Below are positions 24,015-39,567 of a stretch of DNA of 64,000 nt, piece by piece. The first letter of the stretch is position 1, and every line of letters starts with the position of its first letter. The position numbers were made by a program, and so were the translations under genes. The notes below the pieces were generated by a model that saw only the letters and a program-made list of their open reading frames with translations, had not been told where the DNA came from and did no database searches. Source of the DNA: Candidatus Omnitrophota bacterium. GTDB taxonomy: Bacteria > Omnitrophota > Gorgyraeia > B26-G9. The stretch is taken from contig JAHITE010000125.1 of NCBI GenBank assembly GCA_018817585.1, forward strand, positions 12,580-76,579. Direction: 5' to 3'.

Positions 24015-24050
24015 AACTAGATAGTTTAATCTTAATAATTTGGGTGTTTT

Positions 24051-24503
24051 TTGTTTAAAAAAATAACAATATTGGGAATCGGTAATTTATTACTCAAAGA
24101 TGAGGGTGTGGGGATTCACGCTATTGAGGCATTAAGAAAAGAATCGCTGCCTGATAATGTTGAGCTTGTGGATGGAGCGGCGTCAGGATTTGATTTATTG
24201 CCAATAATCGAGCAATGTGATAAGTTGATTGTAATTGACGCGATTAAGATTGCTGAACAGCCGGGAACAATATATCAATTCGACCCCAAGCAGATTGATG
24301 TTAAGCGAGATTTAAATATGTCTCTGCATGATGTTGACTTTTTTCAAGTGCTTGAATTTGCCAATAAACATCGGTGGTTGCCAGAGATATTGATGATCGG
24401 GATTGTTCCTAATGAGATTTGTTTAAGTATGGATTTATCTGATATTATTAAAGGGAAAATACCGAGGATTGTGTATTTAGTTAAGCAAGCAATAGAGAAT
24501 TAA
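24051..24503 (+). CDS. hydrogenase maturation endopeptidase (HyaD/HybD family)
   Basis: 150 aa; ILGIGNLLLKDEGVGIHAIE N-terminus typical of the family. Confidence 0.85.
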   Translation: MFKKITILGIGNLLLKDEGVGIHAIEALRKESLPDNVELVDGAASGFDLLPIIEQCDKLIVIDAIKIAEQPGTIYQFDPKQIDVKRDLNMSLHDVDFFQVLEFANKHRWLPEILMIGIVPNEICLSMDLSDIIKGKIPRIVYLVKQAIEN

Positions 24504-24540
24504 ACTTATATAACTATTATCTTAACAGTTTGAGAAGGGA

Positions 24541-25005
24541 GTGTTTTTTTTGAAAAAAATAATTATTTCAGGATTCATTTTGGGGGTTTTATTGATGTTT
24601 GATTATAATTATGCTTTGGCTCAACAAGATTCTCCAGCTAAAGATATTGCTTCTGAATATGTCGGGGTAGCGCAATGCGCTGTCTGTCACCCCGCGGAAT
24701 ATCAGGAGTATAACAAGCGTAAATTTAAGAAGGCCTGGCGGGTGTTAAAAATGCGTGGGGCGGAAAAAAATGAAATATGCTTAAAATGTCATGTGACTGG
24801 TTTTGGAAAAGGCGGATTTATTAGTGAAGAGCAAACCCCGCATTTAGTTGGTAAACAATGCGAAGCATGCCATGGTCCTGGTGGTAAGCATATAAGTAAT
24901 CCCTCTGACCAGAATTTTAGAAAACAGTTAAAAGTGGTTAATAAGCAAAACATATGTATAGAATGTCATACTTGTATGACAACTCATAAAACAAATGATT
25001 TTTAA
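24541..25005 (+). CDS. periplasmic tetraheme c-type cytochrome (cytochrome c3-like)
   Basis: 154 aa; signal peptide; four CxxCH motifs (CAVCH, CLKCH, CEACH, CIECH). Confidence 0.8.
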   Translation: MFFLKKIIISGFILGVLLMFDYNYALAQQDSPAKDIASEYVGVAQCAVCHPAEYQEYNKRKFKKAWRVLKMRGAEKNEICLKCHVTGFGKGGFISEEQTPHLVGKQCEACHGPGGKHISNPSDQNFRKQLKVVNKQNICIECHTCMTTHKTNDF

Positions 25006-25301: not shown

Positions 25302-26621
25302 ATGAAGAGAATGCTAACAATTCTTTTAGCAGTAAGCATGATTGCGCTTGTGGCAATGCCTGCTTTTGCTGAAGTACAGAATATTAAAGTAAATGGCGGA
25401 GTTAAAATCACTGGTATTACTAGAGAAGGCTTTATTAATAGAGGACCAGCAGGATCTACTACCGGATACCCGGAAGCAGACTCGAGAGATTGGTACAACA
25501 CTGTTACTACTCTTGGTGTCGCGGCAGATCTTACTGACAATGTTTCAGCCACAATGGTATTAGGCAATGAAAGAGATTGGGGACTAGCTACTGCAACTAC
25601 TACTACTACTGGTGATGCTACTGCTGTTACTGTTTTTTCTTCTTACATTACTATGGAAGAAATGCTTTATTCAGCTTTAACAGTTAAAGCTGGTAGAATG
25701 CCGCTTGCTATTGCTGATAAATTAATTGTGGGTGATGGAACTGGTAATATTAATAGTCTTAATAGCGGTAACTTATCAGCCCAGACTGAATTTGATGCGA
25801 TCGTTGGTATTTTAGATTATGATCCATTAACAGTTATTTTGGGTACTGTAAAAGTATCAGATGAAGCACAGTCTGCTTCTGATGACGTGGATCTATATTT
25901 GGTTGATGGTATCTACAAGTTTGAAGATGACATGAACACAGTATTAGATGCTTATTTTGGAACAGCTCATTACAGTAGTCCTGGTGCTGCAACATTAACT
26001 GGTCCTGGTGCAAACAGCACAAGAACAGCTGATGTTAATGTTTTAGCAGCTGTATTGACCATGGAGCCAGCAGAACGCGTAACAGCTAAATTCGGTATTG
26101 GATATCAGTTTGGTGATTACCAGAAGACTGCAACAGCTAGCCGCGGTCTTGACGCAATGGCATTAGATCTTGGTGTAAATTACGCGATTGATAATGAATA
26201 TGCGCCTGTTGTTGGATTAAAATATGTATACCGTTCAGGTGATGACCAGGCAACTGGAGCTAATGCTGACTATACTGGATGGTTAGGTCTTTATGAACAA
26301 CAAATAAATGGTGCGATTTTTGATCCAAATACAAACATCAGCGCTTTTGCTTTAACAGCAACTGCAGTACCTGCTGATAGACTTACTATTGGTTTAGAGT
26401 ATTGGATGTTTACATTAGACGAATCATTGAAAACTGCTACTACACAATGCAGTACAAGTGATGAAGCTGGATCAGAGATTGATCTTACAGCATCTTATGC
26501 TTATACAGAAGATGTTAAGATTGGGCTTGGTCTTGGTTGGTTCTTCCCTGGGGATTATTATAAATCAGGGTTTGATGAAACAGCTATGCAGGCTTTAGTT
26601 CAAGTTGCTGTAAAGTTCTAA
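25302..26621 (+). CDS. outer-membrane beta-barrel protein (putative porin), highly expressed
   Basis: 439 aa; signal peptide MKRMLTILLAVSMIALVAMPAFA; alternating beta-strand pattern; Thr-rich loop; C-terminal VAVKF aromatic terminus; biased codon use. Confidence 0.55.
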   Translation: MKRMLTILLAVSMIALVAMPAFAEVQNIKVNGGVKITGITREGFINRGPAGSTTGYPEADSRDWYNTVTTLGVAADLTDNVSATMVLGNERDWGLATATTTTTGDATAVTVFSSYITMEEMLYSALTVKAGRMPLAIADKLIVGDGTGNINSLNSGNLSAQTEFDAIVGILDYDPLTVILGTVKVSDEAQSASDDVDLYLVDGIYKFEDDMNTVLDAYFGTAHYSSPGAATLTGPGANSTRTADVNVLAAVLTMEPAERVTAKFGIGYQFGDYQKTATASRGLDAMALDLGVNYAIDNEYAPVVGLKYVYRSGDDQATGANADYTGWLGLYEQQINGAIFDPNTNISAFALTATAVPADRLTIGLEYWMFTLDESLKTATTQCSTSDEAGSEIDLTASYAYTEDVKIGLGLGWFFPGDYYKSGFDETAMQALVQVAVKF

Positions 26622-26810: not shown

Positions 26811-28520
26811 ATGTTGAAATTTTTGCCAAAAAATCTAGAGTTTAAGATTATTTTTTCTGTGGGCATAGCGTTATTTGTTGTATTAGGCATAAGTGCGGTA
26901 ATAAATATTTCAACCCAGTCTCGGATTCTGATTGAACAAGAAAAGTCGCTTGCTTCTATTTTAAGTGATAGTATTCTTAATGGTATTTTCTATCCCATGC
27001 TTGGTGGAGATCAGGCACTTGTCCAGACGGTCTTTAATTATTTTGCTTCACAAAAGCAAATAGATATGCTTTTTTTAGCGAATAATGAAGGAGAAATCAA
27101 GCGGTGCACATCTAATGAGTATTTTGGGAAAAAGATTGATTTTAGGGGTATTATTAGTGAAATTGAGTCTAAGGATAAAAGCACTAAGTTGCAAAAATTT
27201 AAAACAAGTAGCAGAAATCCAAATAAGAAAGTTTTTGCGACATATATCCCTGTTTATAATAATCCAGAGTGTAATTCTTGCCATGGTAAAAACACAAAAA
27301 TTTTAGGCCTTCTGGGGGTTGAACTGGAGTGGGATAATGTAAAAAAAGCAACTGCTGATACCTTAAACAGGGTATTGTTGATTGCATTGATTAGTATTTT
27401 TTTAATCAGTATTTTAGTTATTATTTTGCTTAGAAAACTAGTTATTAAACCAATTAATATTTTAGTAAAAGCGAGTGAGCCGGCAGTAAGAGGTGATTTA
27501 ACCATAACAGTAGATAATAATTCTGAGGATGAAATAGGTAAGCTCACAGTAGCTTATAACGCGATTATTAAAAATCTTCATAATATGGTAAGCCGGATTA
27601 AAGAATTAGCGGGAAAAGTTTCTAGTTTTGCCCAAGAGATTTCTACTTCTTCTAAAGAGATGAATGCTTCAACTCAGGAAATTTCTTCAACAATTCAGAA
27701 AATTGCTAAGGGGGTTACCACTCAGGCAAAACGAGTTGAAGATACCTCTCAGCTAATGGAAGGTTTGTCTGATTCAGTTCGTCGGGTTGCTGATAACGCG
27801 ACTTCCGCGACAAAGTCTTCAGAGAAGTCGCTTGAACAGGCGCAAAGCGGTGGATACGCTACTGCTGAAGCTGTAGAAAAAATGAATAAAATAACAACAA
27901 CAGTTTCCAATGCCGCGGCAGTAATCTCCTCATTAGGTGAAAAGTCTCAGCAAATCGGTCAGATTACTGAAACAATTACAAATATTGCTGATCAGACAAA
28001 TCTGCTTGCTTTAAATGCCGCTATTGAAGCAGCTAGAGCTGGAGATGCGGGTAGAGGGTTTGCCGTAGTTGCTGAGGAAGTTAGAAAGCTAGCTGAAGGA
28101 TCTGCTGAGGCAGCACGCCGAATTGGAAGTCTTATAAAGGGAATTCAGGTTGAAACTCCTAAAGCCGTAAGCTCGATAGAAGCTGGAACAAAAGAAGTTG
28201 CTGAGGGCGCTTTGATTGTTTCCCGGGTTTCAGATGCTCTTGCGGAAATTATTAACGCGGTCAGGACATCAGCGACTATGGTAGATGAAATTACTGAAGC
28301 TACTCAACATCAATTGGCTGCTTCAGAAAAAATAGTTAAAGCTGTTGATGAAGTAGCAGTTGTCGCAGAGGAATCAGCTTCCGCGACTGAAGAAGCTTCA
28401 AGTTCTGCCGAAGAACAAACTGCTTCAATGGAAGAGTTGACTGCTTCTGCTGAAGAATTAGCTCGTCTAGCTTTGGATCTCCAAGAACTTGTTGATAAAT
28501 TTCAACTAAATAAGAAATAA
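26811..28520 (+). CDS. methyl-accepting chemotaxis protein with a c-type heme-binding periplasmic sensor domain
   Basis: 569 aa; TM1, periplasmic domain of about 150 aa containing CNSCH (CxxCH), TM2, HAMP; signalling domain [34 protein letters not shown]. Confidence 0.92.
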
Positions 28521-28563
28521 AAATTGACTATTAATTTGTGTATTCAGTCAGGAGGCATAAAAA

Positions 28564-29067
28564 ATGTCTGAAACAAAAAAGGGCAGTGGGGAAATTCAGC
28601 TTGTTGTTTTTAAAATCGGAGAAGAAGAATTTGGAGTGGAAATTAACCAGGTCCGGGAAATTGTTAAGCTGGTTTCAATTACTCGCATGCCAAAGTCCCC
28701 TGCATTTATTGAAGGTGTTGTCAATTTAAGAGGTCAAATTATTACGGTTATTGACTTATCAAAAAGATTGGATTTGCCTTCCGCGGGGCGCAGTGAATCC
28801 ACAAGGATTATGGTTGTAGAAATCGGGGAAAGCATAGTGGGAATGATCGTTGATTCTGTTTCAGAAGTTTTAAGATTATCAGAAAGTAATATAGAAGACA
28901 CTCCTTCGCTTATAGAAACTGAGGTACATGAAAGATATTTGCGCGGTGTAGGTAAAAGCGAAGACAGATTGCTGATATTGTTGGATTTAAACGAGGTGTT
29001 AAGTATTGACGAAGTAAAACATGTAGCTAAACAGGATATTTTAAAAGATGCTATAGAAAAAAAATAG
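28564..29067 (+). CDS. cheW: chemotaxis coupling protein CheW
   Basis: 167 aa; LVVFKIGEEEFGVEINQVREIV CheW fold. Confidence 0.9.
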   Translation: MSETKKGSGEIQLVVFKIGEEEFGVEINQVREIVKLVSITRMPKSPAFIEGVVNLRGQIITVIDLSKRLDLPSAGRSESTRIMVVEIGESIVGMIVDSVSEVLRLSESNIEDTPSLIETEVHERYLRGVGKSEDRLLILLDLNEVLSIDEVKHVAKQDILKDAIEKK

Positions 29068-29096
29068 AGTAACTGAAAAGGAAGGAGCGTTTTAAG

Positions 29097-29471
29097 ATGG
29101 GAGTTAAAGTTTTGGTTGTTGATGATGCTGTTTTCATGCGTAAGATGATTGGAGATATTCTTAAGAAAGAAGGATATGAGGTTGTGGGCGAAGCAGAAAA
29201 CGGGAAAGAGGCAGTTGCTAAATATTTAGAGCTTAAGCCTGATCTGGTTACCATGGATATTGTTATGCCGAAGGTTGGAGATATCGATGGAATCGGAGCT
29301 GTTAAAGAAATAATGGAAAAAGATGAAAAGGCAAAGATTCTGATGGTAAGTGCTATGGGGCAGCATGCTTTAGTGGTAGAGGCTATTCAGTCAGGAGCTA
29401 AAGATTTTGTTACTAAACCTTTTCAGCCTTCGCGAGTACTTGAAGCGGCAAAACGTGTGCTTGAAAGTTAA
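29097..29471 (+). CDS. cheY: chemotaxis response regulator CheY
   Basis: 124 aa; VLVVDDAVFMRKMI, phospho-Asp in DIVMP, Lys in VTKP. Confidence 0.9.
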   Translation: MGVKVLVVDDAVFMRKMIGDILKKEGYEVVGEAENGKEAVAKYLELKPDLVTMDIVMPKVGDIDGIGAVKEIMEKDEKAKILMVSAMGQHALVVEAIQSGAKDFVTKPFQPSRVLEAAKRVLES

Positions 29472-29529
29472 GTACTTAAAACACCACTAATTTTTCTTAA
29501 ATAATTAAATTAAGTAAGGTGTTTATAAT

Positions 29530-30156
29530 TTGTTAAATAAAAAAATTACTTTAAATGCCCAGGAGAAAGATCTTCTCAAGGAAATAGCTAATATCTGCGC
29601 GGGAAATGCAGCGACTTCTCTTTCTCAGTTATTGAGCAAAAAAATAGAAATGAATGTGCCGAATGTTCATTTTATTCCGATAGCTGAAGTGCCAAAAGCT
29701 GTGGGCGGCGCTGATACATTGGTGGTAAGTGTTGTGTTTCAGGTCTTTGGAGCTGCTCCGGGAATTGTTTTATTATTGTTTTCGCAGTCTGATGCCAAAA
29801 CCTTAGCAGGAATTCTTAATGGGGAAACAGCTAGAAATGGACTTTTAACTGAGATGGATCAGTCTGCCATAAAGGAGGCTGGAAGTATTCTGGCTGCTGC
29901 TTATCTAAATACTCTTTCCGCGGTGACTAAAATAGGGCTTATCCCATCTACCCCCGGCATTTTTATTGATATGGCTGGGGCGCTGGTTGATTACATATTA
30001 ATAGAACTCAGTGCTGTTACAGAATACGCATTATTGCTTGATTCAGTATTTGTTGATGCTGAAAAAAGTGTCCAAGGTCATTTCTTTTTATTGCCAAATT
30101 CAGGAAGTTTTGAATTAATTTTAAAAGCGATTGGAGAATCAGTTAATGGATCTTAA
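29530..30156 (+). CDS. cheC: CheY-P phosphatase CheC
   Basis: 208 aa; two E-x2-N motifs (LKEIANICAGNAATSL; IKEAGSILAAAYLNTL). Confidence 0.8.
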   Translation: MLNKKITLNAQEKDLLKEIANICAGNAATSLSQLLSKKIEMNVPNVHFIPIAEVPKAVGGADTLVVSVVFQVFGAAPGIVLLLFSQSDAKTLAGILNGETARNGLLTEMDQSAIKEAGSILAAAYLNTLSAVTKIGLIPSTPGIFIDMAGALVDYILIELSAVTEYALLLDSVFVDAEKSVQGHFFLLPNSGSFELILKAIGESVNGS

Positions 30157-30652
30157 TGAATATAACCCACCTAAAGAAATCCATGTTGGTATGGCAGATA
30201 TGAAAGTTGCCCAAGCTCCGATTGTGCTTACTTCTCTGGGTTTAGGTTCTTGTGTTGGAATAGTTTTATATTACGCGAAAACCCAAATTGGCGGACTTGC
30301 TCATATCATGCTTCCAGATGTTGATTTAGTTAAGAATAGAACTAATCGCGCGAAATTCGCGAATACAGCGATTCCTGATTTGCTGGAGAAATTAGAGAAA
30401 ATGGGAGCGGAAAGAAGGTTTATAAAAGCAAAAATTATGGGTGGAGCCCATATGTTTGGTTTTGCTAAAACTAATAAAGTTTTTAATGTGGGCATCCGAA
30501 ATATTGAAAAAGTGAAAGATATTCTTAAAGATTTGCGAATTAGATTGGTTGCTGAAGATGTGGGCGGTTCCTACGGACGGTCTTTATATTTTTATCTTTC
30601 TACTGGTGAAGTTCGTGTTAGAACTATAAATCATGGAGAAAGAATAATATGA
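30146..30652 (+). CDS. cheD: chemoreceptor glutamine deamidase CheD
   Basis: ORF-track start 30131 is TTG; the ATG at 30146 has a GGAGAA RBS; GLGSCVGIVL with catalytic Cys and MLPD motif. Confidence 0.85.
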   Translation: MDLNEYNPPKEIHVGMADMKVAQAPIVLTSLGLGSCVGIVLYYAKTQIGGLAHIMLPDVDLVKNRTNRAKFANTAIPDLLEKLEKMGAERRFIKAKIMGGAHMFGFAKTNKVFNVGIRNIEKVKDILKDLRIRLVAEDVGGSYGRSLYFYLSTGEVRVRTINHGERII

Positions 30653-31689
30653 TTAGGGTTCTAGTTGTTGATGATTCAGCCTTGATGCGCAGGAAGATAA
30701 CAGAGATATTAGCATCAGATAAGGAAATTGATGTTATTGATTTTGCCAAAACAGGTGCTGACGCGATTAAAAAAGTAGTTCAATTAAAACCGGATGTTAT
30801 TACCATGGATATTGCCATGCCTGATATTGATGGATTAACCGCGCTTACATATATAATGAACGAAGTTCCCACGCCAGTTGTAATTATTAGCGCGAATGTC
30901 GCGCCAGGAAGCGCTAACGCGTTAAGAGCCGCTGAATTGGGAGCCGTGGATACTATTCTTAAACCTAGTGGTGAGATTTCAGTAGATATTGATATTCTTA
31001 GTAAAGAAATTATTAGTAAAGTTAAAACAGCAAGCCGGGTAGATGTAAATAGAGTGCAAGCTTTTTTAAATAGAATAATACAGCCTTCGGGAGTCTCGGG
31101 GGGGGGAAGTTCAAATTTAAAGCATATTGTTGCTATTGGCGCTTCAACCGGAGGGCCGAAAGCGATAAAAGAAATACTTCCTTACTTATCCCCTGATTCA
31201 GAGGCGGCCTTTTTAATTGTTCAGCATATGCCAGCGGCTTTTATTAAGTCAATGGCTCAACGAATGGATTGGATTTCCAAAATTAAAGTAAAGGAAGCTC
31301 ATCATGGAGATATTATAAAGCAGGGAGTGGCTTATCTTGCTCCCGGAGATTTCCATATGATTGTTTCGATGGATAACAATATTCCTACTATTAGACTTAA
31401 TACTGATCCTAAGGTGCATAGTGTTAGACCATCAGTAAGTGTTATGATGAACTCTGCAGCTGAGTGCTTTGGCAATAAAACGATTGGAGTTTTACTTACG
31501 GGAATGGGGCAAGATGGGGTGGAAGGAATGAGAAATATTAAAAGAGTTGGCGGAATCACTTTAGCTGAAGATGAGTCTACTTGTGTTGTTTTTGGAATGC
31601 CGCGCGTTGCTATACAAGAAGGTGTTGTAGATAAAGTTATTCCTCTTGGATATATGGGTATTGAAATAATGAAGCAGATTAGCATATAA
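30649..31689 (+). CDS. cheB: chemotaxis methylesterase/response regulator CheB
   Basis: 346 aa; receiver VLVVDDSALMRR...DIAMP plus methylesterase GASTGGPKAI and GMGQDG motifs. Confidence 0.92.
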   Translation: MIRVLVVDDSALMRRKITEILASDKEIDVIDFAKTGADAIKKVVQLKPDVITMDIAMPDIDGLTALTYIMNEVPTPVVIISANVAPGSANALRAAELGAVDTILKPSGEISVDIDILSKEIISKVKTASRVDVNRVQAFLNRIIQPSGVSGGGSSNLKHIVAIGASTGGPKAIKEILPYLSPDSEAAFLIVQHMPAAFIKSMAQRMDWISKIKVKEAHHGDIIKQGVAYLAPGDFHMIVSMDNNIPTIRLNTDPKVHSVRPSVSVMMNSAAECFGNKTIGVLLTGMGQDGVEGMRNIKRVGGITLAEDESTCVVFGMPRVAIQEGVVDKVIPLGYMGIEIMKQISI

Positions 31690-31704: not shown

Positions 31705-33717
31705 ATGGGAGTAGAGCAATATAAGGATTTATTTGTCGCTGAATCTGAAGAACATCTGCAGATTATTAATAATTCTGTGCTTAGCCTTGAAAAAGACCCG
31801 GCAAATATAACTATTTTAAATGAAATTTTCCGCAGCGCGCATACCTTAAAAGGTATGTCCGCGACAATGGGATTTGAATCGTTAACTCGGCTTACCCATA
31901 AAATGGAAGATGTTCTTGATATATTCCGTAGTCAAAAAATTCCAGTTACAACAGAAATAGTAGATAAGCTTTTTAGTTGTCTGGATATTCTTCAAATGCT
32001 GCTTGAGGAAATTAAAACAGGAGAAGATCTTAATTTAGATATAGAGTCTATTATTCTGCAGCTTCAAAGTGTCACGCCTAATATTTCGGCAGCTGGTTTA
32101 GATAGAGCAGCAGCTGAAAAAAAAGAGCTGTTGATAACAGCTCTGGAAAAAGAGCACCTTCTTAATGCTCTTAAAAATAAAGATATTAGGATTTATAAAA
32201 TTAATATTTTTCTTAGTCAAGATTGTCAATTAAAATCTGTTCGTGCTTTTATGGTTTTTAATAAATTGAATTCAATCGGAGAAATAATCAAAGCAGTACC
32301 TTCAATAGAAGATTTAGAGTCAAATCATTTTGGCTTATCTTTCTGTTTGTTGCTTATGACAAATAGCCTGGCTAAAAAGTTAGAACAAATATTATATAAT
32401 GTTATGGAAGTTGAAAAGGTGTCGCTGACTCAAATAAAAGATATTAACGATTTACCGCTGGAAAAAACAGAAGAACTGAAAGTTAAAGATAATGCTCAGA
32501 AAGTTCCTTCTGATGTTGACTTATCTCAGCAAAAAGATTTAGCTAAGCAATTTGGTTTTAAAAAAATTCAAAGCATTAGAGTTAGTACTCAACGTTTGGA
32601 TAAAATGATGAATTTTGTGGGGGAATTAGTAATTTCTAAAATTCGTTTAATGCAGATAGCCAAGACTCATCAATTAAAGCCTTTAAGTGAAATATTAACC
32701 AATATTGATCGTTTGACCAGTGACTTGCAGGATGAAGTTATGCAGGCTAGACTTATTCCCATGGCTCAGGTCTTTGACCGTTTTCCGCGAATGGTGAGGG
32801 ATTTAGCCCGAAGTGAAAAAAAACAAATAAATTTTGATGTTTCGGGAGGAGAAATAGAACTCGATAGAACAGTGCTTGATGAGATAGCAGATCCCTTGGT
32901 TCATCTTCTGCGCAATAGCGTTGATCATGGGATAGAATTGCCTAATGTTCGTAAGGAAAATAATAAAAACCCGGTTGGGACTATAAAGTTGAGCGCGTAT
33001 AGAGAAAGAACCTTTGTTTTAATTGAAGTATCTGATGATGGAAAAGGCATCGATCCTGAAACTATTCGTGTAGTTGCTTTAAATAAAGGATTTATGACTG
33101 ACGATGAACTCGCGAAACTTAATGATAGAGATATTCTTAACCTTATAACAATGCCTGGTTTTAGTTCAACTTCAGAAATAACTGATACTTCTGGTCGGGG
33201 TGTGGGCATGGATGTTGTAAAGATGAAGATTGAGGCTCTTGGCGGAAGCTTAGTGTTTGACTCTGAATTGGGAAAAGGAAGTAATTTTAAACTAAAGCTG
33301 CCGCTTACAGTAGCGATAATTCGGGCAATGTTGGTGGAAATAAACAAGGAAATATACGCGACTCCAATTGGCAGTATTGTAGAAGCAGTAAAGGTTTCTA
33401 AAAAAAGAATCAAGCATATAGAAAAATTCGAAGTAATTAATTTGCGGGATGAAGTACTTCCGCTTGTAAGATTGGAAAAGATTTTAGGTGTGCCTGCTCG
33501 AGCGGAAGAAATCCCTAGGGAAGAGATTTCTATAGTAGTTGTTGATAATGCCGGGAAAAAGGCAGGATTAGTTGTTGATCGGGTGGTGGGGCAGCAAGAA
33601 GTTGTAATCAAGACGGTGGGTTCTTTATTAAAAGGAATAAAAGGATTCTCTGGGGCAACAATTTTAGGTGATGGAAGCGTGGCTTTGATTCTGGATGTTG
33701 CTTCATTAGTTGGCTAG
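31705..33717 (+). CDS. cheA: chemotaxis histidine kinase CheA
   Basis: 670 aa; HPt HTLKGMSATMGF, dimerisation domain, HATPase GRGVGMDVVK, C-terminal CheW-like domain. Confidence 0.95.
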   Translation: MGVEQYKDLFVAESEEHLQIINNSVLSLEKDPANITILNEIFRSAHTLKGMSATMGFESLTRLTHKMEDVLDIFRSQKIPVTTEIVDKLFSCLDILQMLLEEIKTGEDLNLDIESIILQLQSVTPNISAAGLDRAAAEKKELLITALEKEHLLNALKNKDIRIYKINIFLSQDCQLKSVRAFMVFNKLNSIGEIIKAVPSIEDLESNHFGLSFCLLLMTNSLAKKLEQILYNVMEVEKVSLTQIKDINDLPLEKTEELKVKDNAQKVPSDVDLSQQKDLAKQFGFKKIQSIRVSTQRLDKMMNFVGELVISKIRLMQIAKTHQLKPLSEILTNIDRLTSDLQDEVMQARLIPMAQVFDRFPRMVRDLARSEKKQINFDVSGGEIELDRTVLDEIADPLVHLLRNSVDHGIELPNVRKENNKNPVGTIKLSAYRERTFVLIEVSDDGKGIDPETIRVVALNKGFMTDDELAKLNDRDILNLITMPGFSSTSEITDTSGRGVGMDVVKMKIEALGGSLVFDSELGKGSNFKLKLPLTVAIIRAMLVEINKEIYATPIGSIVEAVKVSKKRIKHIEKFEVINLRDEVLPLVRLEKILGVPARAEEIPREEISIVVVDNAGKKAGLVVDRVVGQQEVVIKTVGSLLKGIKGFSGATILGDGSVALILDVASLVG

Positions 33718-34354
33718 ATTAAATGGGGTTTATGTTTTATTAGGAGGATTAAAAATGGCTGAGTTAACAAGTGTTCAACTCGATGCTTTAAAAGAGATGG
33801 GTAACATTGGGGCGGGGAACGCGGCAACTTCGCTTGCTCAGTTAATTGGGGAAATGGTTAGTAGTAGCGTTCCTGAAGTAAATGTAATGCCTATTGCATC
33901 TGTTGCTCAAGCTCTGGGGGGAGAGGAAAAACAGGTTTATATTATTTATTTGGAAGTTGAAAAAGATATGCAAGGAACAATGCTGACTATTTTCTCAGAG
34001 GAGACAGCCATCTTCTTTGTTAAAAAACTATTAGGTTCGATTGAAATCGATATGACATCAGATATTGCTCAATCAGCATTAAAGGAAGCAGGATCTATTC
34101 TTTGCGGATCTTATTTAAGCGCGCTTAGTCAGCTTGTTAACATGAGTTCTGTGGCTACGGTTCCAGCGATGGCTTTTGACATGCTGGGGGCTATGCTTGA
34201 TTTTGTTTTAGTGGAGATTGGACAAATAGCGGATGAAGTTTTTTTAGTGAATACAGAGCTGTATGTATCTCAAAAAAAACTGGAATGTTCTCAACTTTTT
34301 TTACCAAAACCAGATACTTTAGAAAAAATACTTACTTCACTCGGAATGATGTGA
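33710..34354 (+). CDS. second CheC/CheX-family phosphatase
   Basis: 214 aa; first motif LKEMGNIGAGNAATSL intact; second site (KEAGSILCGSYLSAL) lacks the Asn. Confidence 0.7.
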   Translation: MARLNGVYVLLGGLKMAELTSVQLDALKEMGNIGAGNAATSLAQLIGEMVSSSVPEVNVMPIASVAQALGGEEKQVYIIYLEVEKDMQGTMLTIFSEETAIFFVKKLLGSIEIDMTSDIAQSALKEAGSILCGSYLSALSQLVNMSSVATVPAMAFDMLGAMLDFVLVEIGQIADEVFLVNTELYVSQKKLECSQLFLPKPDTLEKILTSLGMM

Positions 34355-34362
34355 GAGAAAAT

Positions 34363-36513
34363 ATGGATAATGTCGGAGATGATTTAATTTTCGCGCTGGA
34401 TATCGGAACGCGCAAGGTAGTGGGTATTATTGCCAAGAAACGAGATGATGTGATCCATATTTTAGATGTGGAAAAAGTCGAACATCAAACTAGAAATATG
34501 CTTGATGGGCAGATTCATAATATTAATGAAGTGGCAAAAATAGTAAAAAATATAAAAGAGACATTGGAAAAAAGAGCGGGACAGTCTTTATCTAAGGTAG
34601 GAGTTGCTGTAGCCGGGAGAGCGCTTAAGACCGTAAAGGCAAAAGTTTCAAAAGAGCTTTCTTTGAATAATGAAATTACTGAAGGTGATGTGCTAAATTT
34701 AGACTTAGAAGCGGTTAGCAGTATTTTAAAGAACGCGGATAGTGATGGTCATGAGGATTTTTATTGTGTAGGTTACAGCGTTGTTTGTTATCAGCTTGAT
34801 TCTGAGGTAATCGGCGACTTAGTAGGGCATTTTGGTAAGAGTATGGGCGTTGAGGTTATAGCTACATTCTTACCGCGAGTAGTTTTGGATAGTATGTTAA
34901 GTGTGTTGCGCAGGGCAGGCCTTGAAGTAAGTAATCTTACTCTTGAGCCGATCGCGGCTTTAAACGCGATTATTCCTAAAGATATAAGACGCTTAAATTT
35001 AGTCCTTTTAGATATAGGGGCAGGGACTTCTGATGTAGCTCTTACTAAAGACGGTAGTGTGTTTGCCTATGGCATGGTTCCTGAAGCGGGTGATGAAATC
35101 ACGGAGTTAATCTGCGAGAAATTCATTCTTGATTTTAATACTGCTGAAAATGTGAAAAGACAGATATCTATAAAAGAAAAAGTTTCATTTAAAGATATAT
35201 TAGGCAAAGAACATAATCTAGCATCAGTAGATATTATTAATATGATTAAGCCTAGAGTCGCAAAGCTGGCTGAGTCCATAGCCAATCGAGTGCTTGAGCT
35301 TAATAAAAAAGTTCCGAATGCTGCTATTTTAGTTGGAGGGGGAAGCTTGACTCCTCTTTTTGATCAACAACTTTCTCTTGCTTTTCCTCTTGATTTATCA
35401 AATATAGGTGTACGTTTGCCGGAAATGGTTTCAAATATTATAGATAAATCGGGTAAACTAAATAGTCCGGAAATGGTTACTCCCCTAGGGATTTGTATAA
35501 TGACGGCTAATTCTACGGGTTTGAAATTTCTGGAAATATATGTTAATGAAAAAAGAGTTAATGTATTAGATATGCAGCAAAGTCTGGATGTTTTGAGCGC
35601 GCTTGTGGTTGCCGGTGTTAATAAAATGAAGTTATATGGCAGAATAGGAAGGGCTATTTGTGTTGAAGTTAATGGTAAATTAACAGTAATAAAAGGTGAA
35701 ATGGGCAAGCCTGCTGAAATAAAGCTGAACGACCAATATGCTGACCTTACAACAAAAATAAAAAGTGGAGATAAAATATCTTTTAAAGACGCGGTTGACG
35801 GTTTAGACGCGCAGGCAATTATCGGCGATATTGTTGGGATTAAGCCTTTAAATATTAAGTTGAATGATCAATCTATTAAAATTATGCCCAAGGTTACGAT
35901 TAATGGAGATCCGGCGGATCTTTCTGCTAATTTACCGGATAGAGCAGTTATTCAGATTATGCCGACAGTTACAGCCAGGGATGTTTTAGAGTTAATGAAT
36001 CTTAATCTCGAAGAATTGCAGGTAAGAGAGATAGTGGTTAGAGTCAATAAAGAACCTAAGGTTATATCGCAAAGTAGTTTTTCGCTGCTTATTAATGGAC
36101 TGAAAGCGGGATTATCTTCTAATTTATCAGAAGGCAGTGTTATTGAATTTGAGAAAGATAAACATATATTTTATAAGATTAAGGATATTGTTGAAATGCC
36201 TGCTAGCGCAGAAGATGTAGAGATTATTTTGAATGGACAGAAGCATGTTTTAAAAGGAGCTCCAGGCAAAATTTATATGAACGGTCAGCTTGTAGGCCCA
36301 GAGGAGTTTATTATTGATCGAGCAGAGATTATTACAAGCGCAGGAGGAACTTTGCCGCCAACAGTTGTGCAGATCTTAGAGTGCCTGCCTATAAGTATTG
36401 AAGATCAAAGAGGTAAACAATTGAAAATTATGGTTAACGGCAATCCTGGAGGATTTACAACCCCACTTTATAATGGTGCGAATATTAGCATAGATTTTTT
36501 AGACAGGTATTAA
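34363..36513 (+). CDS. actin-like (FtsA/PilM/MreB-fold) ATPase fused to about five tandem beta-grasp-like repeats
   Basis: ORF-track start 34285 overlaps cheC2; the ATG at 34363 gives MDNVGDDLIFALDIGTRKVVGII (actin-fold phosphate-1), later LLDIGAGTSDVALT (phosphate-2) and VGGGSLTPL (adenosine motif); C-terminal ~390 aa made of ~75-aa repeats with an I-x-V-NG-x core. Confidence 0.5.
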   Translation: MDNVGDDLIFALDIGTRKVVGIIAKKRDDVIHILDVEKVEHQTRNMLDGQIHNINEVAKIVKNIKETLEKRAGQSLSKVGVAVAGRALKTVKAKVSKELSLNNEITEGDVLNLDLEAVSSILKNADSDGHEDFYCVGYSVVCYQLDSEVIGDLVGHFGKSMGVEVIATFLPRVVLDSMLSVLRRAGLEVSNLTLEPIAALNAIIPKDIRRLNLVLLDIGAGTSDVALTKDGSVFAYGMVPEAGDEITELICEKFILDFNTAENVKRQISIKEKVSFKDILGKEHNLASVDIINMIKPRVAKLAESIANRVLELNKKVPNAAILVGGGSLTPLFDQQLSLAFPLDLSNIGVRLPEMVSNIIDKSGKLNSPEMVTPLGICIMTANSTGLKFLEIYVNEKRVNVLDMQQSLDVLSALVVAGVNKMKLYGRIGRAICVEVNGKLTVIKGEMGKPAEIKLNDQYADLTTKIKSGDKISFKDAVDGLDAQAIIGDIVGIKPLNIKLNDQSIKIMPKVTINGDPADLSANLPDRAVIQIMPTVTARDVLELMNLNLEELQVREIVVRVNKEPKVISQSSFSLLINGLKAGLSSNLSEGSVIEFEKDKHIFYKIKDIVEMPASAEDVEIILNGQKHVLKGAPGKIYMNGQLVGPEEFIIDRAEIITSAGGTLPPTVVQILECLPISIEDQRGKQLKIMVNGNPGGFTTPLYNGANISIDFLDRY

Positions 36514-36702: not shown

Positions 36703-38700
36703 TTGATGAAAAATTTAGTTATAGTCGAATCTCCGACCAAAGCAAGGACAATCGGCAAAATTCTGGGAAAGAATTACGCGGTTTATTCTTCTATGGGGCA
36801 TATTATTGATTTACCGCGCCGTAAAATAGGTGTTGATGTTGAGCAAGATTTTGCTCCGACTTATGTTGTTATTCCTGGCAAGAAAAAGACTTTGGCTCAA
36901 TTAAAAAAAGAGGTAAAAACCTCTGAAGTTATTTATTTGGCTACTGATCAAGACCGTGAAGGCGAAGCAATCAGCTGGCATTTACAGGAACGTTTACAGG
37001 ATAAGAAAAAAACCCGTAAGTTTCTTCGGGTGGTGTTTCATGAAATAACTCCGGACGCGATTAAGCAGGCATTTAAAAATCCCAGCCAGTTAGATCTGAA
37101 CATGGTTAACGCGCAGCAGGCAAGACGCGTTTTAGACAGGGTTGTTGGTTATTTTTTAAGTCCATTATTATGGAAAAAAGTAGCTAAAGGATTAAGTGCC
37201 GGCAGGGTGCAATCAGTATCTTTAAAGCTTATCGTTATCAGAGAGCGTCAAATTCAGGACTTTGTTCCCGAGGAATATTGGAAGGTAGAAGCAAATTTAA
37301 AGCGCCAGAAAGATGGTTTTGAAGAGTTTACAGCAGAACTGGTTAAATGCGATGGCCAGAAGATTGAACTGGCAAAGCAGGAGCAGGTATCGGGGATTGT
37401 GCAGGATTTAGAAAAAGCGGAATATACTGTTTCTTCAGTTAAAAATAAAGAAAAGAAACGTAATCCTTATCCCCCGTTTATAACCAGTACGTTACAGCAG
37501 GATGCTTTTAATAAACTTAAGTATACCGCGCGTAAGACAATGCTCATTGCCCAGCAGCTGTATGAAGGCATTGACCTTGGGCAGCAGGATCCGATCGGGC
37601 TTATTAGTTATATGCGTACTGATTCTGTGAAAATTGCTGATGTGGCTTTAGTCCAGATCAGACAATATATCAAGGATAACTTTGGCCAGGCCTATTTACC
37701 AGCAAAGCCTAATGTTTATAAATCAAAAAAATCCGCGCAGGAAGCGCATGAAGCAATAAGACCGACATCTATTGAGCGGACTCCTTCCCAGATGCAGTCT
37801 TTTTTAAGTCAGGAACAATATAAGCTTTATGAACTTATCTGGAAAAGGACGGTTGCTTCTCAAATGCAATCAGCTGTTTATATGGTTAATACAATCGAAA
37901 TCGCGGCCGGAAAGTATTTGTTTAGTGCCAGCGGATCAGTGATTACCTTCGAAGGTTTTTTAAAGGCTTATCAGGAAGACTTAAAAGAAAAAGAGAATTT
38001 AATCCCGGAAATATTCAAGGGCGAAATTTTAACATTACTTAAATTAATGCCCAGTCAGCATTTTACCAGACCTCCGGCTAGATATTCCGAATCATCTCTG
38101 GTTAAGGCTTTGGAAGAAGAAGGTATTGGCCGTCCAAGTACATATGCTCCGATTGTTCATACCTTAATTTTTCGTAATTATATCCGCAGGGAAAAAGGTT
38201 ATCTTACTTGTACGGAATTGGGGATGAAGGTAACTGATATCTTAGTCGAATATTTCCCGAATATTATTGATGTAGCTTTTACCGCGGCAATGGAGGAAGA
38301 GCTGGATAAAGTAGAGGAAGGAAAACTTGATTGGGTAAAAGCGTTGAAAGATTTTTACACTCCGTTTAAGGAAAAACTTACCTTTGCTCAGACAAATTTA
38401 AAAAAAGAAGTTGTGGAAACTGATGAAAATTGCGAAAAGTGCGGTAAGCCGATGGTTATCAAATGGTCACGTTCTGGAAAATTTTTAAGCTGTTCGGGTT
38501 TTCCGGATTGTCGTAACGCGAAATCAATATCTTTAGGCGTGAAATGTCCTCAGCCAGAATGTAATGGAGATCTTATTCTGCGCAGATCAAAAAGAGGCAT
38601 GCAATTTTATGGCTGCAGTAATTATCCTAAATGCACATATATTGCGAAAACATTGCCGACAACAGACCGTCAAGTAACGGATGATTTGCAGGATGGATAA
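36703..38700 (+). CDS. topA: DNA topoisomerase I
   Basis: 665 aa; Toprim LVIVESPTKARTI, active-site region, C-terminal zinc ribbons (CEKCGKPM..C..C). Confidence 0.92.
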   Translation: MMKNLVIVESPTKARTIGKILGKNYAVYSSMGHIIDLPRRKIGVDVEQDFAPTYVVIPGKKKTLAQLKKEVKTSEVIYLATDQDREGEAISWHLQERLQDKKKTRKFLRVVFHEITPDAIKQAFKNPSQLDLNMVNAQQARRVLDRVVGYFLSPLLWKKVAKGLSAGRVQSVSLKLIVIRERQIQDFVPEEYWKVEANLKRQKDGFEEFTAELVKCDGQKIELAKQEQVSGIVQDLEKAEYTVSSVKNKEKKRNPYPPFITSTLQQDAFNKLKYTARKTMLIAQQLYEGIDLGQQDPIGLISYMRTDSVKIADVALVQIRQYIKDNFGQAYLPAKPNVYKSKKSAQEAHEAIRPTSIERTPSQMQSFLSQEQYKLYELIWKRTVASQMQSAVYMVNTIEIAAGKYLFSASGSVITFEGFLKAYQEDLKEKENLIPEIFKGEILTLLKLMPSQHFTRPPARYSESSLVKALEEEGIGRPSTYAPIVHTLIFRNYIRREKGYLTCTELGMKVTDILVEYFPNIIDVAFTAAMEEELDKVEEGKLDWVKALKDFYTPFKEKLTFAQTNLKKEVVETDENCEKCGKPMVIKWSRSGKFLSCSGFPDCRNAKSISLGVKCPQPECNGDLILRRSKRGMQFYGCSNYPKCTYIAKTLPTTDRQVTDDLQDG

Positions 38701-39567
38701 ATGGAACGTTATATTGATAAATTTCTTAATTATCTTAAGGTAGAAAAAGATTCCTCGGTACATACTCTGATTAATTACAGTGTTGATCTAAAAGAGCTTT
38801 CCTTGTTTATCGATTCTAAAGAATTAAAAGATATTGATGTTTTGGATGTGCGTAAATTTCTTGTAAGTTTGCGCCAAAAAGGATTTAAAAAAGTAACTAT
38901 TGCCAGAAAAATGGCCTGCCTCAGATCTTTTTTTAAATTTTTGTGCCGGGAAGGCCATCTAAAACTCAATCCGATGGTTGGATTAGTTGGTCCCAAACTG
39001 GATAAAAAACTACCGATTTTCTTAAGTGAAGAAGATATGTCTAAGCTGCTGGATAGTCCTGACATTAAAGATATTTTCGGATTGCGCGATAAGGCGATTT
39101 TGGAAACATTATATAGTACGGGAGTGCGGGTCAGCGAATTAGTCGGCTTAAATATAGAGCATATTGATTTTATATCAGGGGTGATTCGGGTATATGGCAA
39201 GGGAAAAAAAGAAAGATTAGCGCCGATCGGAGACGGAGCGTTAAGAGTTATTAAAAGCTATTTGCAGAAAAGAGGAAAAGATTCATCGGATAGAATTTTG
39301 TTTTTAAATAAAGACGGCCGGCGTTTAACTGACCGCAGTGTGCGTAATATTATTGATAAATACATTAAAGTCGCCAGTGTGCGCAGTGATATCTCTCCCC
39401 ATAGCTTGCGGCATTCTTTCGCGACACATCTCTTGAATAGAGGCGCTGATTTGCGATCAGTTCAGGAACTTTTAGGCCACGCGAATTTGTCGACAACTAC
39501 GATTTACACTCATCTTTCTACGGAAAAGCTTAAGAGCGTTTATGATCAGACCCATCCGCGGGCCTGA
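38701..39567 (+). CDS. tyrosine site-specific recombinase XerC/XerD family
   Basis: 288 aa; R..HxxR..Y catalytic box HSLRHSFATHLL...LLGH...IYTHL; sits immediately after topA. Confidence 0.85.
   Translation: MERYIDKFLNYLKVEKDSSVHTLINYSVDLKELSLFIDSKELKDIDVLDVRKFLVSLRQKGFKKVTIARKMACLRSFFKFLCREGHLKLNPMVGLVGPKLDKKLPIFLSEEDMSKLLDSPDIKDIFGLRDKAILETLYSTGVRVSELVGLNIEHIDFISGVIRVYGKGKKERLAPIGDGALRVIKSYLQKRGKDSSDRILFLNKDGRRLTDRSVRNIIDKYIKVASVRSDISPHSLRHSFATHLLNRGADLRSVQELLGHANLSTTTIYTHLSTEKLKSVYDQTHPRA

Follow-up and report, generated by a model that had tools for sequence, protein, structure and literature searches.

The actin-fold ATPases FtsA (TIGR01174; PDB 7q6d, 1e4f and 4a2a) and PilM (TIGR01175; PDB 2ych and 5eou) carry a 1C subdomain, and a partner peptide is clamped in the 1A/1C groove, from FtsN in the case of FtsA and from the amino terminus of PilN in the case of PilM. 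Among lineage-specific chemosensory accessory proteins, archaeal CheF (DUF439) links the core pathway to the motor, whereas ParC/ParP and PpfA link it to cellular position, ParC and PpfA being ParA-type Walker ATPases. To our knowledge, new conserved chemotaxis components are rarely found, and the F1-type core set is considered essentially complete. Beta-grasp folds occur in ThiS, MoaD and SAMP, in RnfH and in TGS domains, and ubiquitin-like domains are arranged in series in Bub/polyUbl proteins, poly-ubiquitin, ISG15 and FERM proteins; the polyUbl/Bub system is defined by an operon with E1-like, E2-like and JAB peptidase genes (PMC1779556).

In the window (the whole 64,000-nt stretch of Candidatus Omnitrophota DNA that we analysed), the last gene of a che operon encodes a protein, labelled X here, in which an FtsA-like ATPase is followed by five beta-grasp units (Table 1). 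The first-pass annotation had proposed an actin-fold ATPase with about five beta-grasp-like repeats at this position, and the open reading frame, the FtsA fold and the five units confirm it. It was not aware of any described chemotaxis component of this architecture; we likewise found no paper on X, and literature searches combining FtsA-, actin- or ubiquitin-like proteins with chemotaxis or CheA gave nothing relevant. Two Aravind-laboratory surveys of the beta-grasp fold make no mention of an ATPase–beta-grasp fusion, and the ComFB paper mentions ComFB–CheR fusions in Omnitrophota but not X. Because its gene adjoins that for CheA in almost every Omnitrophota locus sampled, as well as in the Methanolobus locus that we examined, X is a good candidate for an undescribed accessory component of chemotaxis.

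Table 1. Coordinates of the che operon and of the domains and motifs of X in the window
Feature	Position	Strand	Evidence
Operon upstream of cheA	26811-31689	+	Pfam; matching order in loci L003-L016
MCP	26811-28520	+	Pfam
cheW	28564-29067	+	Pfam
cheY	29097-29471	+	Pfam
cheC1	29530-30156	+	Pfam
cheD	30131-30652	+	Pfam
cheB	30649-31689	+	Pfam
cheA histidine kinase (Hpt, P2, dimerisation, HATPase and CheW-like domains)	31705-33717	+	Pfam
cheC2, directly upstream of X, 8-nt gap	33710-34354	+	Pfam CheC, 8e-15
X, FtsA-like ATPase with poly-beta-grasp tail, 716 aa	34363-36513	+	ORF and translation; conserved architecture
FtsA/PilM-type actin-fold ATPase domain, aa 1-380	34363-35502	+	TIGR01174, Pfam, Foldseek, AF2 model
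Phosphate-1 motif LDIGTRKVVGII, aa 12-23	34396-34431	+	L12, D13, G15, T16, R17 and G21 at least 90% conserved in 110 representatives
Approximate 1C subdomain, aa ~86-171, FtsA/PilM-specific insert	34618-34875	+	Model secondary structure; full-length superposition on 1C-bearing FtsA structures
Phosphate-2 motif LLDIGAGTSDVALT, aa 215-228	35005-35046	+	L215, D217, G219, A220, G221, T222, S223, D224 and A226 at least 90% conserved
Adenosine motif VGGGSLTPL, aa 324-332	35332-35358	+	G325, G326 and G327 at least 90% conserved
Beta-grasp unit 1, aa ~385-446	35515-35700	+	Strand-strand-helix-strand-strand in model; conserved N395, N437
Beta-grasp unit 2, aa ~449-508	35707-35886	+	Sub-threshold Pfam ThiS/TGS at aa 453-474; hhalign; conserved N456, N501
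Beta-grasp unit 3, aa ~509-572	35887-36078	+	hhalign; Methanolobus orthologous region; conserved G515
Beta-grasp unit 4, aa ~573-632	36079-36258	+	hhalign 428-484 versus 550-612, 97% probability; conserved N578, N624
Beta-grasp unit 5, aa ~634-716	36262-36510	+	Model secondary structure; in relatives, ThiS, TGS and RnfH profiles match the corresponding C-terminal stretch

The gene and its FtsA-like ATPase domain

The reading frame of X runs uninterrupted through 716 codons to its stop, and a protein deposited from an Omnitrophica metagenome-assembled genome (MAG; P0001) is 100% identical to it over the full length. In alignments with homologues of 715-720 aa, the match begins at the Met encoded at 34363, which is therefore the correct start; an alternative, longer ORF begins at 34285 and would overlap cheC2. 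The distance to cheC2, previously given as 9 bp, is 8 nt (the cheC2 stop ends at 34354). That an assembly error or frameshift had fused an ftsA-like gene with a separate gene, a possibility raised when the fusion was first noticed, is refuted and keeps a virtually negligible probability: the frame is unbroken, the two halves are contiguous in each locus that has both, and the same architecture recurs in hundreds of assemblies made independently of one another, among them the finished genomes of Methanolobus and Robertmurraya, which are cultured. The tail is matched by 879 clusters at 50% identity, nearly all of them proteins of about 700-730 aa in which the tail occupies about 380-715. X is thus a genuine single polypeptide of a large, uncharacterised protein family.

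The actin fold and FtsA-like domain order claimed for the amino-terminal half were borne out by profile and structure comparisons, with the domain reaching about 380 aa rather than about 330. The FtsA profile TIGR01174 matches aa 9-377 (1.7e-31) with 109.6 bits, under its curated equivalog cutoff of 175.85, and the second FtsA profile, NF007009, scores 63.4 against a cutoff of 409. The PilM profile TIGR01175 gives 43.4 bits against a cutoff of 133. Pfam FtsA, PilM_2 and MreB_Mbl are all above their cutoffs (PilM_2 at 28.6 versus 27). With the AF2 model (pLDDT of 84 for the ATPase domain) as the Foldseek query against the PDB, E. coli FtsA (7q6d) was matched with an E value of 3.5e-28 and a TMt of 0.85 over 394 aligned columns; further FtsA structures gave TMt values of 0.77-0.86, and PilM structures 0.66-0.79. 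As in FtsA, a 1C subdomain, the limits of which we took from model secondary structure and not from coordinates, stands in place of actin 1B. All three of the ATP-binding motifs quoted in the first-pass annotation are present, with key residues that are invariant or show 90% conservation or more among 110 family representatives of 31-59% identity.

A tail of five beta-grasp units

The tail measures about 332 aa (385-716), not about 390, and its five units recur about every 62 aa, where the earlier estimate had been about 75. The hydrophobic-x-V-NG core by which the repeats were first recognised is real in the form of an h-x-h-N-[G/D] strand–turn motif, but each unit bears two of these, and the five motifs originally quoted mix two conserved series (N395/N456/G515/N578/N640 and N437/N501/N561/N624/N692, with N561 below 80%). 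Self-BLAST of the tail found no repeats; they become visible on profile–profile comparison of sub-alignments, the best pairs reaching 97-98% probability (98% for 485-549 versus 615-665). Conservation in the tail lies mainly in the turn Asn and Gly residues and is weaker than in the ATPase, which is more in keeping with a structural or binding module than with an enzyme.

The proposed relationship to ThiS/MoaD-type domains is supported by the model fold, by Foldseek matches and by profile matches in relatives. On X itself, Pfam PF02597 (ThiS) reaches 19.7 bits against a gathering cutoff of 22.5; on relatives it scores 46.8 (Methanolobus), 44.9 (Dictyoglomota) and 30.8-38.7 bits (others), and the Methanolobus region orthologous to unit 3 matches positions 4-68 of the 76 in the profile. 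MoaD, ThiS, SAMP1, BubA and multi-ubiquitin proteins are among the best matches by fold. With the whole tail as the query, the best Foldseek matches were the tandem ubiquitin-like proteins 9cd2 (2.7e-6) and 7eb9 (5.7e-6); the global TM is low (0.13-0.25), indicating that the relative arrangement of the domains differs from theirs. Only in unit 5 is the order, b1-b2-helix-b3-b4-b5, unambiguous; this last unit finishes in ...FLDRY and lacks a Gly-Gly, and the modelled chain terminates in a beta-strand (aa 706-713). For units 1-4 the register, which we attempted to set from secondary structure, hhalign and Pfam coordinates, is tentative: because the pattern 'h-x-h-N-G ... D-x-x-I-x-h' fits both strand 1-2 and strand 3-5 of ThiS, two tilings of the inner units are possible, and these units differ from ThiS/MoaD-type domains by an extra hairpin or a shifted register. 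Between the units, the model has no low-confidence linkers and no Gly-Gly sites.

Linkage to che genes and the wider family

X lies among che genes in 38 of 39 genome loci, the exception being a 1.85-kb contig, and six further loci are also che-linked (L001, L042, L046, L050, L051 and L054). The order CheA–CheC–X holds in nearly all che-linked loci that have upstream sequence, and cheA is at most two genes upstream of X throughout the che-linked clade. Sequences that keep this order include L001, at 45% identity, where cheC and X overlap by 4 nt, as well as an unrelated metagenome contig and the genome of Methanolobus zinderi; other Methanolobus species also carry the protein. The linkage thus persists at identities down to about 40% and across the divide between bacteria and archaea. 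In three loci (L018, L019 and L028) X directly follows CheA, with no CheC detected, so CheC is not an obligatory partner. Screened for CheF and other known domains, the unannotated genes of the M. zinderi and L001 clusters yielded only a marginal DUF3795 and another CheC. In the window, X is followed by topA. Promoter and terminator scans of the operon returned sites no more numerous than in shuffled sequence, and the operon boundaries are consequently drawn from spacing alone.

In a midpoint-rooted neighbour-joining tree of 116 sequences, built without support values, the 41 che-linked sequences and two truncated ones form one bipartition. Members of the che-linked clade come from Omnitrophota, from a few other bacterial MAGs and, among archaea, from the genus Methanolobus. 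The Omnitrophota hosts of X are uncultured.

In the family at large the picture differs. Among 79 loci sampled from metagenomes and carrying the gene, che or flagellar genes adjoin it in only a handful, and we rejected the idea that the whole family is motility-linked. Bacillota-type relatives are mostly found in housekeeping contexts (aroA/ccpA, Dak2-like and mutS2), often as single genes on the strand opposite to their neighbours, and one recurrent context, spoIIID-mbl-flhO, adjoins an MreB paralogue. Dictyoglomota relatives outside the clade sit in true flagellar clusters. Given that the family outside the che-linked clade lies mostly in housekeeping neighbourhoods, its ancestral function was probably not chemotaxis. 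The earlier suggestion of a role in chemotaxis is therefore partly supported: the clade to which the X of the window belongs is che-linked, but the family as a whole is not chemotaxis-specific. Even within the clade, the linkage could reflect co-regulation instead of a physical complex.

Possible roles of X in the chemosensory pathway

To the reading that X is an ATP-dependent scaffold working with CheA and CheC, as a dedicated accessory of an F1-like (CheC/CheD-containing) pathway, we give about half of our credence, judging its function from genomics alone. The model suggests an actin-fold ATPase in which the usual C-terminal membrane anchor has been replaced by a linker-less array of five ThiS/MoaD-like modules. 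By analogy with FtsA and PilM, the ATP-bound amino-terminal module might self-associate, clamp a partner peptide in its 1A/1C groove, or both; polymerisation and peptide clamping are extrapolated to X from these analogues. The five-module tail may form an arm that binds proteins multivalently, its partners being the products of the constant gene neighbours (CheA and the CheC-type phosphatase), and X would thereby organize or localize the kinase/phosphatase assembly of the chemosensory array. In being lineage-limited and encoded in or near che clusters, X resembles CheF, ParC/ParP and PpfA, an analogy of function only, as these proteins are unrelated to X in sequence and fold.

Two other readings follow from the likeness of each half to well-studied proteins. 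FtsA is the best match of X in both sequence and structure, with a shared fold, domain order and conserved ATP motifs, and X might accordingly be a cytoskeletal or division protein of general function (either the FtsA of the host or a long paralogue of FtsA) that is only incidentally co-transcribed with che genes; the housekeeping contexts of most Bacillota-type relatives, often lone genes on the opposite strand, and the recurrent neighbourhood beside an MreB paralogue are in keeping with this. We nevertheless consider it improbable. X falls short of the FtsA equivalog cutoff and has about 335 aa of beta-grasp units, ending in the strand of unit 5, where FtsA has its amphipathic membrane-targeting helix. 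It occurs in che operons or housekeeping contexts and never beside ftsQ or ftsZ, with no dcw or ftsQ–ftsZ context in any of about 120 loci, and a che linkage that reaches down to about 40% identity in bacteria and archaea is hard to explain by chance. X is also found in an archaeal genus, and archaea, as far as we know, divide without FtsA. The fold of the tail, together with the Pfam ThiS matches in relatives, would likewise allow a ThiS/MoaD-like sulfur carrier or a ubiquitin-like modifier made as a poly-Ubl precursor, comparable to bacterial Bub/polyUbl. Against this, X lacks a Gly-Gly end, a C-terminal GG is found in only 5 of 244 full-length relatives, no E1/ThiF/MoeB, E2, JAB, ThiG or MoaE gene lies nearby in any neighbourhood examined, and the absence of linkers and Gly-Gly sites between units leaves nowhere for processing. 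The X units also differ from single ThiS/MoaD/SAMP, RnfH and TGS domains in being in tandem, fused to an ATPase and free of conserved ligand-binding residues, and from Bub/polyUbl and the other tandem arrays in their fusion to an actin-fold ATPase and in the lack of an E1/E2/JAB operon. We rejected both the carrier and the conjugation readings, which retain hardly any probability: the tail is neither a sulfur carrier nor a conjugatable modifier. X, for its part, is probably not a divisome FtsA.

A role at the output end of the pathway is harder to set apart. CheC shares homology with the middle domain of FliM/FliY, which binds CheY-P, and X could act as an adaptor or 'switch' at the output, serving type IV filament machines. 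X and the adjacent CheC-like protein would together receive CheY-P, and the PilM-like ATPase module of X would couple the signal to a filament machine, namely the motor of the type IVa pilus in Omnitrophota and the archaellum in Methanolobus, much as CheF does in other archaea. The amino-terminal domain does match PilM as well (PilM_2 and Foldseek, above), a PilT-like ATPase and a prepilin peptidase are encoded in the window, eight loci have a type IV pilin-like gene ahead of the cheY-cheC-cheA-cheC-X block, and MshEN/PilZ and pilin genes lie upstream in L001. By a crude count, the CheC adjacent to X lacks the strict phosphatase motif in 10 of 32 cases, versus 3 of 53 for other CheCs. In the main survey of Omnitrophota, type IVa pili are reported for nearly every genome, and its main text never mentions flagella or chemotaxis (PMC10066038). 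The 10 kb flanking the M. zinderi cluster on each side contained no CheF/DUF439, and archaeal che regions that lack CheF are a recognised puzzle (PMC2666748). However, FtsA models far outscore PilM, PilM has no beta-grasp tail, and no pilMNOPQ, pilB or pilC gene adjoins X in any locus examined, pilN-pilO-pilP-pilQ being absent from its neighbours in the window and in related loci. The CheC2 of the window retains the first phosphatase motif, as does CheC1; CheF may lie elsewhere in the Methanolobus genome; and the Dictyoglomota relatives belong to true flagellar clusters. We regard the adaptor reading as possible although unlikely, and rather more tentatively propose that X and the upstream CheC-like protein form an unrecognised output module from CheA/CheY to type IVa pili or the archaellum, a bacterial-type counterpart of archaeal CheF that would combine a PilM/FtsA-like ATPase with a five-module ubiquitin-like arm and would have been transferred between domains in a che cassette. 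The array-positioning or scaffolding role is what we infer for X, and the adaptor role fits the data about equally.

Neither an actin-fold ATPase nor a poly-ubiquitin-like arm has a known role in chemosensing. If X organizes the kinase/phosphatase assembly as a scaffold, array biology would gain an ATP-dependent cytoskeletal element; should it instead connect CheY-P with type IV pili or archaella, the finding would address both how Che systems control type IV filament motors without FliM and how CheF-less archaeal che clusters work. The role of X is directly testable because its che-linked clade is represented in cultured Methanolobus and the wider family in cultured Bacillaceae (Robertmurraya). 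Database entries name members of the family 'cell division protein FtsA', 'rod shape-determining protein' or 'pilus assembly protein PilM', and our results flag these three names as a systematic mis-annotation across hundreds of genomes.

Architecture and spread of the fusion protein

The last gene of the che operon, here called X, encodes a protein that is very likely a nucleotide-binding actin-fold member of the FtsA/PilM branch, as judged from its profile scores, model fold and conserved nucleotide-binding residues. Pfam FtsA, PilM_2 and MreB_Mbl all pass their domain thresholds in X, and NCBIfam TIGR01174 (ftsA) matches aa 9–377 (1.7e-31) with 109.6 bits, under the curated 175.85; the pilM model reaches 43.4 bits (cutoff 133). 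A PDB sequence search returned FtsA, then PilM, EutJ and MreB, and nothing else. An AlphaFold2 model built from 54 homologues (mean pLDDT 84) was matched by Foldseek to nearly the entire chain of E. coli FtsA (7q6d; E 3.5e-28, TM 0.85), with the 1C subdomain included in the superposition, and PilM structures came next (TM 0.66–0.79). The residues D13/G15/T16, E195, D217/G219/G221/T222/D224 and G325–G327, which bind the nucleotide, are ≥90% conserved among 110 family representatives with 31–59% identity to the window protein. The Pfam, TIGR01174 and 7q6d matches thus bear out the actin-fold N-terminal half proposed in the first-pass annotation. Structurally, X is a branch of the FtsA and PilM adaptors and, by analogy, may work like them, but it stands outside both as defined families on score cutoffs, C-terminal helix and gene context. 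The same three counts argue against an identity as divisome FtsA.

Self-BLAST detected no repeats in the tail. Profile–profile comparison of sub-alignments matched 485–549 to 615–665 (probability 98%) and 428–484 to 550–612 (97%). Across the 110 representatives, the tail has diverged faster than the ATPase, with conservation concentrated at structural turns rather than in a polar pocket. These turn residues fall into two series that alternate along the tail, each recurring about every 62 aa: N395/N456/G515/N578/N640 and N437/N501/(N561, <80% conservation)/N624/N692. The tail comprises five units, each with two 'h-x-h-N-G/D' strand–turn motifs, like ThiS. The five repeat motifs picked out earlier are genuine but draw on both series, and the spacing of about 75 aa then assigned to them gives way to the shorter period. 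Relatives P0163, P0181, P0194, P0215, P0263 and P0267 are shorter (589–671 aa), with tail-profile matches in two or three separate stretches, and a subgroup that includes P0234 (871 aa) has about 150 extra residues; unit number or inserts probably vary within the family.

A separate model of aa 381–716 (pLDDT 86) had no low-confidence linkers. Its top whole-tail Foldseek matches are tandem ubiquitin-like arrays (E. coli multi-ubiquitin protein, 2.7e-6; tetra-ubiquitin, 5.7e-6), with Talin FERM, ISG15 and di-ubiquitin at E > 0.001. Because the global TM is low, the units resemble those of ubiquitin arrays but their mutual arrangement differs. Pfam ThiS scores 19.7 bits in X (cutoff 22.5) and passes its threshold in relatives; in the Methanolobus orthologue (46.8 bits), one stretch spans ThiS positions 4–68 of 76. 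The TGS, Ub-Mut7C, RnfH and ThiS-like models also match the tails of other relatives. The Foldseek and ThiS matches uphold the earlier view of a ThiS/MoaD-type beta-grasp tail. Register is ambiguous in units 1–4, where a single sequence element is similar to strands 1–2 as well as strands 3–5 of ThiS; only unit 5 (~aa 634–716) has the unambiguous order b1-b2-helix-b3-b4-b5. Although its units are of the same beta-grasp type, X is without the functional hallmarks of ThiS/MoaD, namely a Gly-Gly end and, in the neighbourhoods examined, genes for partner enzymes. X ends in ...FLDRY, and just 5 of 244 full-length relatives carry a C-terminal Gly-Gly. A sulfur carrier or modifier role for the tail was rejected on the absence of these features.

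A tail-only profile searched against 1.84 billion representative proteins gave 879 clusters at E ≤ 1e-3 (667 at E ≤ 1e-10); among the matches listed, nearly all are 700–730 aa long with the tail at ~380–715. ATPase and tail are contiguous in every fetched locus having both. The recurrence of this architecture in hundreds of clusters, with contiguous halves, excludes the frameshift or assembly artefact considered at first reading. The fusion occurs in many MAGs of Omnitrophota, in others assigned to Elusimicrobia, Planctomycetes or just 'bacterium', in Dictyoglomota, in Bacillota (among them Syntrophomonadaceae, Thermoanaerobacterales and Robertmurraya siralis, which is in culture) and in at least 12 named species of the archaeal genus Methanolobus with finished genomes. 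Source records give these relatives generic names: 'cell division protein FtsA', 'rod shape-determining protein', 'pilus assembly protein PilM' or 'ATPase' and, once, 'ubiquitin-like domain-containing protein'. In the literature searched, we found no description of the fusion or its che linkage, and it is absent from the two systematic surveys of beta-grasp proteins in prokaryotes. Judged from sequence and model, the novelty of X would lie in the appendage on a known ATPase scaffold and in the conserved pathway context. It is unusual for a conserved gene within che operons across an entire phylum to have gone unrecognised, and X is directly testable because cultured archaea carry it.

Gene neighbourhoods

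The start of X coincides with the alignment start of 715–720-aa homologues and with that of P0001, a 100% identical protein from a Candidatus Omnitrophica MAG (716 aa); an alternative ATG at 34285 would give a longer ORF overlapping the preceding gene. X begins 8 nt after the cheC2 stop and is followed by a 190-nt gap. Promoter and terminator consensus scans around the operon did no better than on shuffled sequence, so the placement of X as the last che-operon gene rests on spacing and conserved gene order.

Coordinates of X, its neighbours and related features
Feature	Sequence	Position	Strand	Remark
MCP	window	26811-28520	+	Pfam
CheW	window	28564-29067	+	Pfam
CheY	window	29097-29471	+	Pfam
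CheC (cheC1)	window	29530-30156	+	Pfam
CheD	window	30131-30652	+	Pfam
CheB	window	30649-31689	+	Pfam
CheA	window	31705-33717	+	Pfam
second CheC (cheC2)	window	33710-34354	+	Pfam
X	window	34363-36513	+	716 codons, uninterrupted
topA	window	36703-38700		
topA and xerC/codV-like recombinase	window	36703-39567		behind X
NiFe hydrogenase large subunit, maturation protease, small multihaem cytochrome c	window	22602-25005		just upstream of che operon
alginate-export-like outer-membrane protein	window	25302-26621		after hydrogenase/cytochrome genes
PilT-like type II/IV secretion ATPase	window	9960-11036		among branched-chain amino-acid biosynthesis genes
prepilin peptidase (A24)	window	14892-15902		between shikimate dehydrogenase and chorismate synthase genes
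ORF, 618 aa	window	50311-52167		no Pfam match (E <= 1e-4 and E <= 1e-5)
ORF, 272 aa	window	4086-4904		no Pfam match (E <= 1e-4 and E <= 1e-5)
type IV pilin-like gene	L001	5734-6129		
type IV pilin-like gene	L022	94-513		
ComFB-family protein (87 aa), then CheR	L001	12526-13625		downstream of X
dprA-topA-trmFO	L046	10151-14962		after X
che cluster with X, four CheC-like genes	L042, Methanolobus zinderi CP058215.1	2009407-2031530		

In a genome-collection sample of 39 X loci, mostly Omnitrophota, che genes adjoin X in 38, the sole exception being a 1.85-kb contig with X alone. Wherever upstream DNA is available X follows CheA-CheC, but in three loci CheC was undetected and X directly follows CheA. 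Two layouts recur: (a) MCP-W-Y-C-D-B-A-C-X-topA-xerC, the window's own, and (b) Y-C-A-C-X-(ComFB)-CheR-Y-D-B-C-W. The CheA-CheC-X order is also kept in L001 (a 1.87-Mb contig whose X is 45% identical and overlaps cheC by 4 nt), in the unrelated metagenome contig L046 and in M. zinderi. The order after X is that of the block ahead of the Bacillus subtilis fla/che operon, dprA-topA-trmFO-codV-hslVU-codY, and this suggests that the topA-type block and motility operons are anciently linked across phyla.

ComFB proteins are a c-di-NMP receptor family. The X-ComFB-CheR arrangement occurs in 21 of 44 che-linked loci, which hints at a cyclic-dinucleotide input into the X-linked system; ComFB-CheR fusions have been noted in Omnitrophota (PMC12448109). 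Directly upstream of cheY-cheC-cheA-cheC-X, L022 and seven other che-linked loci have a type IV pilin-like gene, marked by FTLIELV... at the N-terminus or by N_methyl. L001 has such a gene as well, together with one for an MshEN/PilZ protein and two for large products of 736 and 886 aa with no Pfam match. By a crude regular-expression count on our own ORF calls in related loci, the strict D/S-x3-E-x2-N-x(18-26)-P phosphatase motif is missing from 10 of 32 CheCs next to X versus 3 of 53 others; each CheC of the window keeps one copy.

In M. zinderi the order is CheY-CheB-CheA-CheC-X-CheR-CheC-CheC-CheD, and no CheW, MCP or CheF (DUF439) was found within 10 kb either side. Four genes of this locus have no or a marginal Pfam match (404 aa, with marginal DUF3795; 172, 208 and 201 aa). 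Outside Methanolobus, the sequences closest to the archaeal branch are Omnitrophota-like (~40% identity), a relationship suggesting that a bacterial che cassette was transferred into Methanolobus.

A wider set of 80 metagenome loci (33–66% identity, picked via ATPase motifs; 79 carry the gene) contained only a handful of che-linked cases. The neighbourhoods that recur in it are Bacillota-typical: acuABC-ccpA-aroA-X-ytxJ-ytxG (14 loci), an adjoining Dak2/FakA-like gene (8), spoIID-spoIIID-mbl-flhO-wecG-X (5) and mutS2-X (3). In Dictyoglomota, X sits in a flagellar cluster, flgF-G-A-H-I, HDOD, X, flgN-M-K-L (3 loci). A tree built by neighbour joining from 116 full-length sequences placed all 41 che-linked sequences, with two from truncated contigs, on one side of a single split. 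Given these contexts and this split, X does not belong to a chemotaxis family overall; che clusters are the hallmark of the window's clade, which lies consistently within them. Five loci (L007, L017, L024, L036 and L041) bear MAG labels such as Planctomycetes, Deltaproteobacteria or Methylocystaceae on contigs with Omnitrophota-like gene content, and L047 resembles a spore-forming Firmicute (spoIID, spoIIID, mbl); such mismatches probably arose when the source MAGs were binned or classified.

Candidate roles in the che system

FtsA and PilM are peripheral adaptors that self-associate and clamp short partner peptides between subdomains 1A and 1C, and tandem ubiquitin-like domains are typically protein-binding platforms. 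By analogy with both, and given a tail that diverges faster than the ATPase and is conserved at structural turns, we give about an even chance to a model in which X would act as an ATP-dependent scaffold. Its five-module arm would bind Che proteins, the likeliest being CheA, the CheC-type phosphatase or both, and X would thereby organise or localise the kinase/phosphatase assembly.

The main rival, in which X would serve type IV filament motors as an output adaptor, seems unlikely. In its favour, the CheY-P-binding domain of FliM/FliY is a homologue of CheC, pilT-like and prepilin-peptidase genes occur in the window, and 8 loci have pilin genes ahead of a layout-(b) cluster; yet no pilus or archaellum genes adjoin X in the loci examined, and X fits FtsA models better than PilM models. 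No flagellar genes were found among the window ORFs scanned. Type IVa pili, which would suit such an adaptor, are near-universal in Omnitrophota according to the main survey, in whose main text flagella and chemotaxis go unmentioned (PMC10066038). The M. zinderi cluster without CheF also fits, archaeal che regions of this kind being an acknowledged puzzle (PMC2666748), although that search spans 10 kb on either side of it, and CheF may lie elsewhere in Methanolobus genomes. Still less probable than an output adaptor is a housekeeping or divisome role for X, which the failed FtsA membership tests and che synteny spanning bacteria and archaea both argue against; the non-che relatives may have such a role.
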